Below are positions 53,058 to 57,297 of a stretch of 64,000 nucleotides of DNA, in pieces. The stretch lies in NCBI RefSeq assembly GCF_988242995.1, contig NZ_OZ547043.1; one strand, written 5' to 3'. Below the pieces are notes generated by a model. That model did no database searches, had not been told where the DNA came from, and worked only from the letters and a program-made list of their open reading frames with translations. Position numbers and translations under genes: made by a program. The number at the start of each line of letters is the position of its first letter. Position 1 is the stretch's first letter.

Positions 53058-54218
53058 ATGACAAATAACCCTCTGATTCCACAAAGCAAACTTCCACAAC
53101 TTGGCACCACTATTTTCACCCAGATGAGCGCGTTGGCGCAGCAACACCAGGCGATTAACCTGTCGCAAGGCTTTCCTGATTTTGATGGTCCGCGCTATTT
53201 GCAGGAGCGGCTGGCGTACCACGTTGCTCAGGGGGCAAACCAATACGCGCCTATGACTGGCGTGCAGGCCTTGCGCGAGGCGATTGCTCAGAAAACGGAA
53301 CGTCTGTATGGCTATCAACCGGATGCCGATAGTGATATCACCGTAACGGCAGGGGCGACGGAAGCGTTATATGCAGCGATTACCGCATTGGTGCGCAATG
53401 GTGATGAAGTGATCTGCTTTGATCCCAGCTATGACAGTTACGCGCCCGCCATCGCGCTTTCGGGGGGAATAGTGAAACGTATTGCACTGCAACCACCGCA
53501 TTTTCGCGTGGACTGGCAGGAATTTGCCGCATTGTTAAGCGAGCGCACCCGACTGGTGATCCTCAACACCCCGCATAACCCCAGTGCAACTGTCTGGCAG
53601 CAGGCTGATTTCGCCGCTTTGTGGCAGGCAATTGCCGGGCACGAGATTTTTGTCATTAGCGATGAAGTCTACGAGCACATCAACTTTTCACAACAGGGCC
53701 ATGCCAGCGTGCTGGCGCATCCGCAGCTGCGTGAGCGGGCGGTGGCAGTTTCTTCATTTGGCAAGACCTATCATATGACCGGCTGGAAAGTGGGTTATTG
53801 CGTTGCGCCAGCGCCCATCAGTGCCGAAATTCGCAAGGTACACCAGTATCTGACCTTTTCGGTGAATACCCCGGCACAGCTGGCACTTGCGGATATGCTA
53901 CGTGCAGAACCTGAGCATTATCTTGCGTTACCGGACTTTTATCGCCAGAAACGCGATATTCTGGTGAATGCCTTAAGTGAGAGTCGGCTGGAGATTTTAC
54001 CGTGCGAAGGTACATACTTTTTGCTGGTGGATTACAGCGCCGTGTCTACGTTGGATGATGTTGAGTTTTGCCAGTGGCTGACGCGGGAGCACGGTGTAGC
54101 GGCGATTCCGCTGTCGGTGTTTTGCGCCGATCCCTTCCCCCATAAACTGATTCGTCTCTGTTTTGCCAAGAAGGAATCGACGTTGCTGGCAGCAGCTGAA
54201 CGCCTGCGCCAGCTGTAG
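53058..54218 (+). CDS. ybdL: PLP-dependent methionine aminotransferase YbdL, 386 aa
   Basis: ORF track MTNNPLIPQSKLPQLGTTIFTQMSALAQQH... Confidence 0.95.
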   Translation: MTNNPLIPQSKLPQLGTTIFTQMSALAQQHQAINLSQGFPDFDGPRYLQERLAYHVAQGANQYAPMTGVQALREAIAQKTERLYGYQPDADSDITVTAGATEALYAAITALVRNGDEVICFDPSYDSYAPAIALSGGIVKRIALQPPHFRVDWQEFAALLSERTRLVILNTPHNPSATVWQQADFAALWQAIAGHEIFVISDEVYEHINFSQQGHASVLAHPQLRERAVAVSSFGKTYHMTGWKVGYCVAPAPISAEIRKVHQYLTFSVNTPAQLALADMLRAEPEHYLALPDFYRQKRDILVNALSESRLEILPCEGTYFLLVDYSAVSTLDDVEFCQWLTREHGVAAIPLSVFCADPFPHKLIRLCFAKKESTLLAAAERLRQL

Positions 54219-54848
54219 TTATTTAACCGTCCAGGCACGGGAATATTGACGGTCGGCAAACAACTCTTGCAGGCCATTAATTTGTTTCAGGCGCAGCACC
54301 TCGTCGCTGTCCATTCCCAGCTCTTTGCCAATTTTATTATCGTCCCATCCCAACTGGCTGAGTTCACGGACGATTTCTGACATGGCAGTGATTTGGTGAC
54401 GTCCACGGGCGCGATTATGACGAATAGTCGCGGCGATGCGTTGATTACGCGTACCTTCCAGACAGGTCACCGGCAAATAACCTTTTAAGCGTAATTTTAA
54501 CGATGATGAGCCTTTACCAATTTCATGGCGGTGAAAACCATCCACGATTTCCAGGGCATTTTTATCCGTATGCGTGACCACAATGGGTTGGGTAAAACCA
54601 TCTATTTCAATGGATTTTTTCAGCAGTTTTTTTTCGGGTGGTGCCACGTTGTTTGGGTTGTAATCATTAGGCATAAGTTGGCTGTTTTTAACCCACAGAA
54701 CGCAATCCACTGGCTCTTCTCGAAAGGGGCTAACCTGATGGATCGCCATGCGGATTTCATTAATCGCTTTGATGCGATCGTCTTCCGGCAAGCTGGCGAG
54801 AAATTGGGTTAAATCCTGCGTTAATCGTTGTTGCATAGTATCCCCCAT
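54219..54848 (-). CDS. ybdM: ParB-like nuclease-domain protein YbdM, 209 aa
   Basis: ORF track; 5' end overlaps ybdN 3' end by 28 bp. Confidence 0.85.
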   Translation of the reverse strand: MGDTMQQRLTQDLTQFLASLPEDDRIKAINEIRMAIHQVSPFREEPVDCVLWVKNSQLMPNDYNPNNVAPPEKKLLKKSIEIDGFTQPIVVTHTDKNALEIVDGFHRHEIGKGSSSLKLRLKGYLPVTCLEGTRNQRIAATIRHNRARGRHQITAMSEIVRELSQLGWDDNKIGKELGMDSDEVLRLKQINGLQELFADRQYSRAWTVK

Positions 54849-56041
54849 TCCTGACGTTTTCCTTTTATTCGTTCGTTATAACGCTGATAGTTCTTCGCTT
54901 TGGTCGGGCTAAATGATAATGCCCGACACCAGTAATCGTTATTGAGTAAAACTTTGCATATTCGCCGCCAGGAGGGGATATCTTTCGCGCCAATGTCCCC
55001 TTGCTGGGTTTGTGGAACCTCGATGCCTTTTTTCTGATACCAGTGCAAATAAATGGCGATTTTATTGCGATAATGCTCAGCTGTTTTCTCCGGCATGCTG
55101 TTGAGTAGCAATAATGCATACTCCTGCCAGTCTAAATGTTCGGGCTTGAGGATTTTCCGATGACCATAAAAATGGTTGTCATGTCCGGCGTAAATGCCGC
55201 CACTTTTTACCCCGCTGACTCGTGCGCACATAGCAGCCCAGCGATCCGGTTCGATAACGTGATAGAGCCATAATCCTTGCCGTTGTTCCGGACCAAAAGG
55301 TTCGCAAATTCGCATATGACGTAGAGGAACGCCTGCCTGATACATTATATTATACAGTGGGTTACAGAGGCGTTGATGGCTAGCATACCAGGTCCAGATA
55401 TCAGCGACTTTCCAGTCGTAGATGGGGTAAATGTACCAGCTATGACCGCCTGGTGCGGCAGTGGTCCAGGGCTTATCATCGGCAAAACGTTGTTTATTTA
55501 AACTGGCGATGGCGACAAAACGGTTGTAGGACTCATCCGCACGGATGCCGATCATCATCGCCGCCGGACGTTTTTGTGAAAACCATTCGGCAAACTCACG
55601 CACAAATTGTTCGAAGGTCATGCCTGGCTGGTAAAAGGAGAAAAAGTCAGGATCGGTTATCGCATCTTGCGGAGGCTGACGTACCCATTCGACATCAGGT
55701 TCCCAGCACTGCCATTCGGGTTGGTATTGTGATAGGGAATTTTGCGTTGTAAGCGGGAGCGCAACCCAGTAAAACTCTTCGATGACATCGGTGTACAACT
55801 CGCGCAGAGACTGAACATAGTTAATGGTGCAAGAGAACTGAGCTTCCCAGTCGATAAATAAAACACAAATTTTTTTGCCCATTTGTCGGGCAAGTTCGGC
55901 GGTCAGATGCAGCATTAATCCGGAATCTTTACCACCCGAAAAAGAAACGCAGACGCGGGGTAGGGTGTTAAGTGTCCAGGTAATACGTTCTTTTGCAGCT
56001 TCCAGAATATTCAGTGGAAGCGGGATTTTATAAATAGACAT
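54821..56041 (-). CDS. ybdN: PAPS-reductase-like (phosphoadenosine phosphosulfate reductase family, SGGKDS P-loop) protein YbdN, 406 aa
   Basis: ORF track MSIYKIPLPLNILEAAKERITWTLNTLPRVCVSFSGGKDSGLMLHL... Confidence 0.85.
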   Translation of the reverse strand: MSIYKIPLPLNILEAAKERITWTLNTLPRVCVSFSGGKDSGLMLHLTAELARQMGKKICVLFIDWEAQFSCTINYVQSLRELYTDVIEEFYWVALPLTTQNSLSQYQPEWQCWEPDVEWVRQPPQDAITDPDFFSFYQPGMTFEQFVREFAEWFSQKRPAAMMIGIRADESYNRFVAIASLNKQRFADDKPWTTAAPGGHSWYIYPIYDWKVADIWTWYASHQRLCNPLYNIMYQAGVPLRHMRICEPFGPEQRQGLWLYHVIEPDRWAAMCARVSGVKSGGIYAGHDNHFYGHRKILKPEHLDWQEYALLLLNSMPEKTAEHYRNKIAIYLHWYQKKGIEVPQTQQGDIGAKDIPSWRRICKVLLNNDYWCRALSFSPTKAKNYQRYNERIKGKRQEWGILCNND

Positions 56042-56187
56042 CTGAAAACGCTCTCTGAACGTTACGGGGTGACTCGTGAGATGAATCCGTTAATTATAGG
56101 GTAAACGAAGCAAGATAGAGCACATTATTTTATATTCACACAATGAATCAATTGATGCGTAATATAACATTTATCCGTGGTAATAAA

Positions 56188-57090
56188 TCAGAAGCTATCA
56201 TTTAAACGATCTATGAATCGTGAGAAGACAAGGTTGTTCAACGAAGCCTTGTTATAGGAAATATAAAGTTTAACCGCAGGAAGTGGTCGTTCCAGTTTTA
56301 TCTCTTGTAACTTCAAAAAATCACGATGTAAATCGTACAGTTCGGTGGGCACAATGCCCAATAAGTCAGTAACAGAAATACTATTAATTATCGTCAACAA
56401 AGAAGAACTGCGAAATGAAATTTTACGGTTCATAAAACGTTCATCTATGTCCATTTGAATTTCGTCAATCCCTGCTGATTTAGATATCAACAAGGTGAAT
56501 TCTTCGGCGATAATTTGTTCATAGTTACTGGTATCGGTAATACGAGGATGTTTATTGCTACATATAAGAGAATTGCGAATAGTATGTAACGGCATGCAGA
56601 TGACAGAGCGGCTAATTACTGGTTGTAGTGTAATTGCCAGGTCAGTTTTGCGTTGAACCAACAGTTCTTCGGCATTTTCAGCTGAAAGCAGTATGTCATG
56701 GCATTCTATATCGATTGAAGTATCTTGTCTAAGACAGCGGATTAGCATGTTGTTATTAGTACAAGAAATAAGCTGAGGACCGTAGATAATAAAATTTTTC
56801 TTTAGCTCAGACTTATTAACAATATTGATCGTTTGTTCAAGGCCTCTGAGATTTTTCTCAAGATGATGATGCAGATTTAACCCTGTCGTAGTCGGCGCGA
56901 TACCTTTCCCTGAGCGAATGAATAACGGGTCATTAAATTGCGCACGTAAACGTTGTAACGACTGACTAACAGCAGAGGGCGTTATATATAATGATTCTGC
57001 TGCTTTGCTAATGCTGAGGTGTTGATAAATGCACTCAAATATGACCAGTAAATTCAGATCAAATTTTTTTAGGTCATAAAGATTCGCCAT
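56188..57090 (-). CDS. ybdO: LysR-family transcriptional regulator YbdO, 300 aa
   Basis: ORF track; start moved to MANLYDLKKFDLNLLVIFECIY; markedly AT-rich gene. Confidence 0.85.
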   Translation of the reverse strand: MANLYDLKKFDLNLLVIFECIYQHLSISKAAESLYITPSAVSQSLQRLRAQFNDPLFIRSGKGIAPTTTGLNLHHHLEKNLRGLEQTINIVNKSELKKNFIIYGPQLISCTNNNMLIRCLRQDTSIDIECHDILLSAENAEELLVQRKTDLAITLQPVISRSVICMPLHTIRNSLICSNKHPRITDTSNYEQIIAEEFTLLISKSAGIDEIQMDIDERFMNRKISFRSSSLLTIINSISVTDLLGIVPTELYDLHRDFLKLQEIKLERPLPAVKLYISYNKASLNNLVFSRFIDRLNDSF

Positions 57091-57297
57091 AACATACTCC
57101 GTTATATTATCTCTTCTATAAATCATTCATTTGTTCAATAATGTTGCTGTTGTATTTATTTGTATTATGTTTTTTTGCTTAACTCAGAATTAAGTTTTTC
57201 TAAAATAGCACAGCCACTTAGGGCAGAGCGAGCAATTCATGCTTTTTTAGGATGGTTGAAAAACAGGGATATATTTCAACCATCCATGAATTATCTT

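Follow-up and report, generated by a model that had tools for sequence, protein, structure and literature searches.

We identified ybdN (positions 54,821 to 56,041) and ybdM (54,219 to 54,848), two overlapping genes on the minus strand of a 64,000-nucleotide stretch of Escherichia coli DNA (contig NZ_OZ547043.1 of assembly GCF_988242995.1; hereafter the window), as almost certainly the IbrA/IbrB family's copy on the E. coli chromosome. The ybdN product is a 406-residue PP-loop ATP pyrophosphatase of the IbrA family and the ybdM product is a 209-residue protein of the IbrB family. The pair is not new: it has a name and has been partly studied. As a speculative proposal, which we think more likely wrong than right, IbrAB-type pairs would constitute a widespread system for marking DNA in phages, plasmids and their hosts, in which an adenylating enzyme is targeted by a ParB-fold protein, often accompanied by an SNF2-type helicase or by one of two small proteins (c3 and c4, described below), and a non-sulfur, adenylation-dependent mark protects or licenses mobile-element DNA; in enterobacteria it would have been domesticated to switch on silent acquired genes. 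The reading of the pair as acting on DNA draws on family membership, obligate pairing, the ATP-type PP-loop, nucleoside triphosphate (NTP)-binding motifs with a helix-turn-helix (HTH), and the DNA-related gene context. It draws also on the position of ibrAB-like pairs beside acquired adhesin and virulence genes, on repression by the regulator CitR, and on low ratios of nonsynonymous to synonymous substitution (dN/dS).

Family assignment and gene structure

YbdM carries the RefSeq name "IbrB-like domain-containing protein", and for proteins of 57-99% identity UniProt uses the names "Immunoglobulin-binding regulator" or "Co-activator of prophage gene expression IbrA". Sandt, Hopper and Hill (2002, J Bacteriol 184:3640) are said to have described IbrA and IbrB of E. 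coli ECOR-9 as immunoglobulin-binding regulators that activate prophage eib genes. In comparison with plasmid ibrAB-like pairs, YbdN is 58% and YbdM 56% identical. YbdN has the IbrA-type architecture, a PAPS_reduct PP-loop domain followed by DUF3440, and is adjoined by a co-oriented gene of the IbrB type that encodes a ParB-like domain and an HTH. Among the families compared, IbrA/IbrB is the only one for which all testable features were found. As cited in three papers (PMC6008420, PMC8813620, PMC4490671), IbrA and IbrB are co-activators of prophage eib genes.

The two reading frames overlap by 28 nucleotides (54,821 to 54,848, minus strand), implying translational coupling. The location of the pair and the overlap are exactly as given in the original prediction, an earlier note on this stretch. 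A second in-frame ATG of ybdM at 54,836 is preceded by a better-placed Shine-Dalgarno-like sequence, GGGGGA; a start there would give a protein of 205 residues and an overlap of 16 nucleotides, the same value as in the plasmid homologues. The locus was found in 5420 of 5426 complete E. coli genomes, and its synteny, with citR upstream and ybdL downstream, is kept in Escherichia, Citrobacter, Pseudocitrobacter and Superficieibacter. The dN/dS values of 0.024 for ybdN and 0.035 for ybdM indicate strong purifying selection on both genes, on par with the neighboring aminotransferase gene ybdL (0.026).

The original prediction had regarded both proteins as uncharacterized. This stands insofar as our literature search found no mechanistic study of the pair, but the IbrA/IbrB family has been named and repression of the genes by CitR has been published (PMC9068703). 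No fused IbrA-IbrB proteins of the Rosetta stone type were present among the long homologues. One UniProt entry, A0A6N3R9C3 of Shigella flexneri (505 residues, "ParB-like nuclease domain protein"), is 95% identical to YbdN over 334 residues; it may be a frameshift fusion of ybdN and ybdM or an annotation artifact.

YbdN

YbdN consists of an N-terminal domain resembling phosphoadenosine phosphosulfate (PAPS) reductase and a helical C-terminal DUF3440 domain, with matches to Pfam PF01507 (PAPS_reduct; E 2.4e-13) and PF11922 (DUF3440; E 5e-23) and to phrog_2302 of PHROGs (E 1e-76). The SGGKDS PP-loop motif (residues 35-40; positions 55,922 to 55,939, minus strand) is the predicted site for the alpha and beta phosphates of ATP. 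Among 51 diverse homologues Gly 37, Lys 38 and Ser 40 are invariant and Ser 35, Gly 36 and Asp 39 are conserved in at least 90%, and in a non-redundant set of 120 sequences Ser 35, Gly 37, Lys 38, Asp 39 and Ser 40 each reach about 97%. Structures of YbdN and YbdM were predicted as single chains, each monomer alone; the closest structural neighbors of YbdN are flavin adenine dinucleotide (FAD) synthase, the adenosine phosphosulfate (APS) and PAPS reductases, and CysD. YbdN is a canonical ATP-type SGGKDS PP-loop enzyme of the PAPS-reductase/CysD/FAD-synthase structural branch, extended by DUF3440, and is better termed a predicted ATP pyrophosphatase/adenylyltransferase than an "ATPase".

No cysteine is invariant or near-invariant among the 51 diverse homologues. 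The most conserved cysteine column (column 94, 86% of the diverse set) is an alanine in YbdN, and Cys 246, Cys 362 and Cys 372 are present in 53-57% of that set (Cys 372 in 57%). Cys 372 reaches 91% only in the closer-relative set of 120 sequences. Cysteine patterns are highly variable across the family, and some phage homologues carry none of the candidate cysteines.

YbdN was also compared with named families, using the curated NCBIfam cut-offs and, for defense systems, the models of PADLOC-DB 2.0. As a CysH protein it falls below the equivalog cut-offs and has neither the catalytic cysteine nor an Fe-S motif. As a DndC protein it scores 21.7 bits with TIGR03183 against a cut-off of 290.4, over residues 145-222 only, and the corresponding PADLOC match is local. 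On the pair as a whole PADLOC gave only weak local matches, and on CitR none. Beyond the generic PP-loop and ParB folds, searches of PADLOC, NCBIfam and Protein Data Bank (PDB) sequences led to no assignment at the level of a family.

YbdM

From its N-terminus to its C-terminus, YbdM comprises a helical hairpin, an NTP-binding fold of the ParB/Srx type and an HTH resembling region 4 of sigma-70. It matches Pfam ParB_N weakly and phrog_2159 strongly (E 3.9e-69). The motifs YNPN, Glu 72, IVDGFHR and TIRHNRARGxH are invariant in 45 homologues, and conservation is unusually high, with homologues from different phyla 34-81% identical to YbdM. The DGFHR motif (residues 103-107; positions 54,528 to 54,542, minus strand) occupies the position of the GxxR phosphate-binding motif in Box II of ParB, so that the ParB N-terminal fold is present together with a conserved motif of the GxxR type; within it Asp 103, Gly 104 and Arg 107 are invariant in the same 45 homologues and His 106 is conserved in at least 90%. 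Similar motifs are DGQHR in DndB and GCHR in sulfiredoxin. The fold of YbdM is nearest to those of PadC and KorB; for the HTH the matches are VirB, KorB and sigma region 4. The protein joins a nucleotide-binding domain of the ParB/Srx fold, in which the DGxHR and RHNRARG motifs are intact, to an HTH like that of sigma region 4.

The domain calls of the original prediction, an SGGKDS/PAPS-reductase fold for YbdN and a ParB/Srx fold for YbdM, agree with the Pfam and PHROGs matches. Its "nuclease" label for YbdM does not survive: nothing supports such an activity, no features that mark a nuclease were found in YbdM, and the word is a historical domain name. ParB folds have been reported to bind ATP, CTP or GTP and in some cases to act as enzymes, with a nucleotide specificity that is not predictable from sequence (bioRxiv 10.1101/2025.10.10.680097).

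Other assignments of YbdM were considered. The only NCBIfam models to match were Noc and ParB_part, both weakly, and the single PADLOC match was to a type II methyltransferase, over the ParB-like N-terminal region. As a canonical partition ParB it scores 15.8 bits with TIGR00180 against a cut-off of 58.45, and no ParA-like gene is adjacent. The protein terminates after the HTH and has no C-terminal dimerization domain. No DndB family model matched, and the likeness of DGFHR to the DndB motif does not amount to membership.

Pairing, distribution and genomic neighborhood

The family-alignment scans covered at least 80 loci in species-representative genomes and at least 80 in viral contigs, and pairing was assessed with profile hidden Markov models, a partner being a YbdM-like open reading frame within 1.6 kb of a YbdN homologue on the same strand. 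Among the matches listed, which span bacterial phyla, phages, plasmids and one archaeon, 167 of 170 YbdN-homologue loci have such a partner. Two of the three unpaired loci lie at contig ends and one (L088) is genuinely unpaired. The genome loci among these matches come from the Proteobacteria, Verrucomicrobia, Bacteroidota, Firmicutes, Lentisphaeria, Helicobacter, Acidobacteria and one Heimdallarchaeote. The YbdN and YbdM distance matrices correlate with r = 0.64, a value reached by none of 500 permutations. The near-constant partnership and this correlation bear out the claim that the genes act as one functional unit; a co-occurrence restricted to Escherichia, which had been named beforehand as a finding that would speak against the pair, is decisively contradicted by the same loci.

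Among the matches listed, the order in genomes is nearly always the ybdN homologue followed by the ybdM homologue, and viral contigs have both orders (42 with ybdN first, 37 with ybdM first). The two genes are typically separated by about -28 to +15 nucleotides, and most homologous loci are translationally coupled. Homologues occur in 224 phage and 855 plasmid GenBank records, and 340 of 600 pattern matches in viral contigs are relatives. The main reservoir of the IbrA/IbrB module is in phages, prophages, plasmids and genomic islands.

Neighboring genes were clustered over 171 loci, and among these only three recur directly adjacent to the pair: a gene for an SNF2-type helicase and the genes for c3 and c4. 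The helicase (about 415 residues; Pfam SNF2-rel_dom and Helicase_C; phrog_62) is encoded directly upstream of the IbrA homologue and in the same orientation in at least 34 loci of genomes and viruses (L003, 6,824-8,002; L007, 3,755-4,993; L027, 5,739-6,983; and at least 31 more), including Lactobacillus and Streptococcus phages. The c3 protein, of about 140 residues with the motif SCEHNL...NRxAWxGQAACC, is encoded between the ParB-like and IbrA-like genes in viral contigs, either free-standing (L126, 7,564-7,989; L009, 7,219-7,635) or, in at least 23 loci, as a fused C-terminal part of the ParB-like protein (for example L131, 3,223-4,380). The c4 protein, also of about 140 residues, is encoded directly upstream of the IbrA homologue in L038 (6,569-6,997) and at least 13 other loci, mostly of Bacteroidota, and occurs fused once to an IbrA homologue (P0176, residues 448-551) and once to the SNF2-type helicase (L155, 6,218-8,014). 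Neither c3 nor c4 could be assigned with Pfam, PHROGs or PDB profiles, and hints of a GNAT acetyltransferase in c4 (E 0.2-0.5) were below significance.

Replication and recombination genes also recur around the pair in the viral loci. In many viral contigs it is flanked on one side by genes for a Sak4-like annealase, a single-stranded DNA-binding protein (SSB) and a RecE-like exonuclease and on the other by helicase/primase genes, and phages of Mycobacterium, Arthrobacter and Bacillus have it immediately ahead of the terminase gene or among DNA methyltransferase genes. No cysteine desulfurase, DndD/E, SspB/SspC, PglZ/BrxC, ParA, nuclease effector or toxin is a recurrent neighbor in the 171 loci listed, and no metabolic gene recurs among them.

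Accessory ibrAB-like paralogues (58% amino acid identity) were found at L001 (11,989-13,844), L172 (8,936-10,791), L173 (8,949-10,801) and L002 (9,705-11,566). One such pair on an IncF plasmid is beside genes for YadA-like (Eib-type) adhesins and an OmpA-family gene, one on an O157:H7 island is directly upstream of a PerC-family regulator gene, and those on Klebsiella plasmids are between fec and iro.

CitR and the expression of ybdNM

The gene upstream of ybdN is citR (ybdO; open reading frame 56,188 to 57,126, minus strand, with the annotated start MANLYDL at 57,090), which encodes the LysR-type repressor of ybdNM. It is AT-rich, with a guanine-plus-cytosine content of 0.34-0.39, and its identity is given by NCBIfam NF047710 (453 bits against a cut-off of 400), so that the adjacency to an AT-rich LysR gene described in the original prediction is correct. 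A 2022 study established that CitR represses ybdNM and described citR as regulated by H-NS (PMC9068703). The study located a CitR peak by chromatin immunoprecipitation with exonuclease digestion (ChIP-exo) upstream of citR-ybdNM, whose position relative to the citR-ybdN intergenic region (56,042 to 56,187, minus strand), the likely site of the ybdN promoter, is not fixed here. In a citR deletion of E. coli BW25113, ybdN was the top-induced gene (+5.5 log2) and ybdM rose by 2.5 log2; 86 genes were altered, and the sole promoter bound by CitR among the genes that changed was its own (PMC9068703).

The same deletion raised the complete cys regulon (cysDNC, cysJIH, cysPUWA, tcyP and yeeE), raised the flagellar regulon and citCEF, and lowered lrhA (PMC9068703, Table 1). 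Since an unrelated ybeF mutant has the same lrhA and flagellar shift (PMC9068703), the shifts in the citR deletion are possibly strain effects. The cys, flagellar and cit changes may be indirect effects of YbdNM or strain artifacts. In a separate study the YbdM protein, there termed "completely uncharacterized", rose 29-fold in E. coli carrying the multiresistance plasmid pUUH239.2, a rise linked to blaCTX-M-15, and deletion of ybdM slightly raised the fitness cost of the plasmid (PMC8764527).

Compared with a K-12-like chromosome, the genes flanking the locus in the window are 94-100% identical, citR is 79.6% identical and the citR-ybdN intergenic region 70.5%; between the two citR copies dS is 2.16 and dN/dS 0.029. 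A 2.9-kb query of the locus is matched at just 80-90% in 3336 of the 5420 E. coli genomes, and this bimodal identity is caused by the divergence of citR and the promoter region, not of ybdNM. One species contains two ancient haplotypes of a repressor gene, citR, and its target promoter.

Proposed mechanism and alternative explanations

In the mechanism that we propose, YbdM would bind DNA through its HTH, gated by a bound NTP as in KorB, VirB, ParB and DndB, and would bring YbdN to the DNA or license it there. YbdN would then convert ATP to AMP and pyrophosphate, adenylating an oxyanion on a nucleic acid or on a DNA-bound substrate, a chemistry common to CysD, FAD synthase and the DndC/TdpC class. 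The result would be a covalent mark or a remodeling other than the sulfur insertion of DndC, and the target DNA would be read differently, so that in enterobacteria silent acquired genes would be switched on, as eib genes reportedly are by IbrAB. In phages the function of the pair would be tied to replication or packaging genes, and in E. coli CitR normally holds the module off. We consider the evidence for and against a DNA-targeted complex of an enzyme and its targeting protein to be evenly balanced, and we put slightly less trust in the mechanism as a whole; an actual covalent modification of the DNA is rather doubtful.

Several observations weigh against this mechanism. The E. coli genes have no SNF2-type helicase and lie among housekeeping genes, no parS-like palindrome was found in the 3.4 kb scanned around the operon, and DUF3440 has no recognizable DNA-binding relative. 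No biochemical activity has been reported for any member of the IbrA/IbrB family, and we know of no modified base in E. coli DNA that is attributable to ybdNM, an operon that is repressed in the laboratory. The physical interaction of YbdN and YbdM is deduced from gene linkage only, and a model with a transcription factor and nothing more can account for the only published phenotype, eib activation.

Such a model, which we judge unlikely but consider seriously, would make YbdM/IbrB an NTP-switched counter-silencer of the VirB/KorB kind, relieving the silencing, for example by H-NS, of horizontally acquired genes; YbdN/IbrA would be its accessory, supplying or sensing a nucleotide or cofactor without modifying DNA. 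The sole family phenotype reported, as cited in PMC6008420 and PMC8813620, is the co-activation of eib. The PadC/KorB-like fold of YbdM and its VirB-, KorB- and sigma-region-4-like HTH also suit counter-silencing, as do the virulence and adhesin genes and the PerC-family regulator that adjoin enterobacterial copies and the 86 genes altered in the citR deletion, in which ybdN is up 45-fold and CitR bound only its own promoter (PMC9068703). Left unexplained, however, are the catalytically intact PP-loop enzyme in 167 of the 170 listed loci, the SNF2-type helicase, the replication modules of lytic phages and the proximity of DNA methyltransferases, and YbdM lacks the C-terminal dimerization domain of the clamp-forming ParB and KorB. 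The structural neighbors of YbdN all act on small molecules, which could point instead to a pair in which YbdN adenylates a metabolite, nucleotide or tRNA like FAD synthase, CysD, TilS or QueC, its ParB/Srx partner is a kinase-like or ATP-binding catalytic protein (compare sulfiredoxin, SerK and SbnI), and the product is a cofactor or signal. The binding of ATP, CTP or GTP by ParB folds, some of them enzymatic (bioRxiv 10.1101/2025.10.10.680097), agrees with such a role, and the rise of the whole cys regulon when ybdN is derepressed is a lead only (PMC9068703). We nevertheless find a small-molecule or RNA substrate improbable, given the conserved HTH of YbdM, the recurrence nearby of an SNF2-type DNA translocase and DNA methyltransferases, and the failure of metabolic genes to recur in the listed neighborhoods.

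The cys induction in the citR deletion (PMC9068703) would also fit a DNA sulfur module of the phosphorothioate type, like DndB-DndC, SspD or BrxP of the type 4 bacteriophage exclusion (BREX) system, which the original prediction had offered as an analogy. The pairing of a ParB-like with a PAPS-reductase-like protein parallels DndB with DndC, DndC (PADLOC E 2e-5; NCBIfam TIGR03183) and BrxP (PADLOC E 1e-4) are matched weakly and locally, and a cysteine pair, Cys 362/364 with Cys 372, is frequent in DUF3440, Cys 372 reaching 91% in the 120-sequence set. The analogy proved weak: the family has no invariant cysteine and the column-94 cysteine is an alanine in YbdN, the DndC and BrxP matches are far below their cut-offs (290 bits for DndC), and no cysteine desulfurase, DndD/E, SspB/C or PglZ recurs among the listed neighbors. 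The lack of an invariant cysteine and of a desulfurase or DndD/E partner makes both DNA sulfur modification, which we rate as very unlikely, and true PAPS reductase activity hard to sustain. A genuine CysH-like PAPS reductase of sulfate assimilation is what the database product names state, and a survey of viral sulfur genes included a "CysH" clade with DUF3440 in its organosulfur auxiliary metabolic genes (bioRxiv 10.1101/2021.01.05.425418); but YbdN scores 34.1 bits with TIGR02057 against 254.2 and 33.3 with NF002537 against 154, has neither the conserved C-terminal catalytic cysteine (ECGLH-type) nor a CC...CxxC cluster, and has a PP-loop of the ATP type, SGGKDS. A PAPS reductase is also at odds with the obligate ParB-like partner and with the setting in DNA metabolism, E. 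coli already has cysH, and we regard this function as next to impossible. The other suggestion made for the pair, a host defense module against phages or plasmids, could draw on the 29-fold rise of YbdM with pUUH239.2 and the plasmid's higher cost in the ybdM deletion (PMC8764527). It is very unlikely, about as much so as the sulfur module, with no PADLOC system match, homologues abundant in phages (the 224 records and the 340 of 600 viral matches), many of them in replication modules, a reservoir in phages, prophages, plasmids and islands and not in defense islands, no recurrent effector nuclease or toxin among the listed neighbors, and an E. coli locus that is core, syntenic across the Enterobacteriaceae and flanked by housekeeping genes. 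Of the nucleic-acid role put forward in the original prediction, the general form is plausible in view of the HTH, the SNF2-type helicase, the replication modules and the methyltransferases, and its sulfur-based version is unlikely.

Other features of the locus

The gene order is cstA-ybdD-hcxA-ybdL, followed by ybdM-ybdN-citR and then by dsbG-ahpCF. The genes ybdL (plus strand) and ybdM (minus strand) are convergent, and their stop codons abut at 54,218/54,219 with zero spacer, leaving no space for a terminator between them. This gene pair is listed as a convergent "excludon" from E. coli RNA sequencing (PMC12288877). A perfect 12-nucleotide inverted repeat with a 12-nucleotide spacer (GGATGGTTGAAA / TTTCAACCATCC) occupies 57,250-57,285, past the dsbG stop codon and upstream of citR, and is the sole inverted repeat in the 3.4 kb scanned around the operon. 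It may be the dsbG terminator, which is likelier than a parS-like site, or a regulator site. Promoter and terminator scans gave no more sites than in shuffled sequence, and promoter-like hexamers in the citR-ybdN intergenic region are no commoner than expected by chance.

Wider relevance

Among E. coli genes, ybdN and ybdM are two that still lack a known function. Phages of bacteria from gut, soil and water commonly carry the family, which is also found on plasmids of Klebsiella, E. coli and Salmonella (one of them with fec and the salmochelin genes iro) and on islands of the pathogenicity type; an extra ibrAB-like copy is present in about 40% of complete E. coli genomes. If the pair does mark or remodel DNA, it would represent a new enzymatic route by which horizontally acquired genes come under epigenetic control, and perhaps also one by which phages evade host restriction. 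The E. coli copy is a convenient test bed, being silent, under a single dedicated repressor and cleanly derepressible.

The phage homologues are annotated as "phosphoadenosine phosphosulfate reductase" and placed by PHROGs in the class "moron, auxiliary metabolic gene and host takeover". The label "PAPS reductase/cysH" on DUF3440-bearing phage genes is probably wrong. Because the DUF3440 clade lacks the CysH features and has a ParB-like partner, surveys of "cysH" auxiliary genes probably over-count, and if the DNA-marking reading is true these phage genes would not be sulfur-metabolism genes at all.

Comparison with known systems

IbrA/IbrB of ECOR-9 have the same organization as ybdNM, two genes of which one encodes PAPS_reduct plus DUF3440 and the next, overlapping it, a ParB-like domain plus HTH. 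The two sorts of pair differ in their setting: ybdNM is core, syntenic and chromosomal and has its own LysR repressor in CitR, whereas the ibrAB-like pairs are accessory, occur on islands and plasmids, and are present in 2148 of 5426 E. coli genomes in up to four copies.

Beyond its own family, the nearest parts list is that of DndB-DndC, with SspD, BrxP of BREX type 4 and TdpC as related PP-loop enzymes. In both systems a ParB/Srx protein bearing a DGxHR-type motif accompanies a PP-loop ATP pyrophosphatase that resembles PAPS reductase, an action on DNA is plausible, and adenylation chemistry is expected. DndC has three cysteines for a 4Fe-4S cluster and a cysteine dyad (PMC10853773), which YbdN does not have, and in place of the C-terminal region of DndC YbdN carries DUF3440. 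The ybdNM pair also lacks the DndA, DndD and DndE partners, its E. coli neighbors being ybdL, citR and dsbG.

KorB, VirB and PadC differ from YbdM in that YbdM is shorter, has no C-terminal dimerization domain, has an HTH like sigma region 4, and is always coupled to an enzyme gene. CysH, CysD and FAD synthase align to only about 40% of YbdN, which has an extra insertion and DUF3440, and the genomic context of YbdN is different from that of the CysH-type enzymes. A further resemblance is to the Dpd 7-deazaguanine DNA modification system, in which the ParB-like DpdB is found with DpdA and SNF2/DEAD helicases, and the PP-loop enzyme QueC acts upstream in the pathway.

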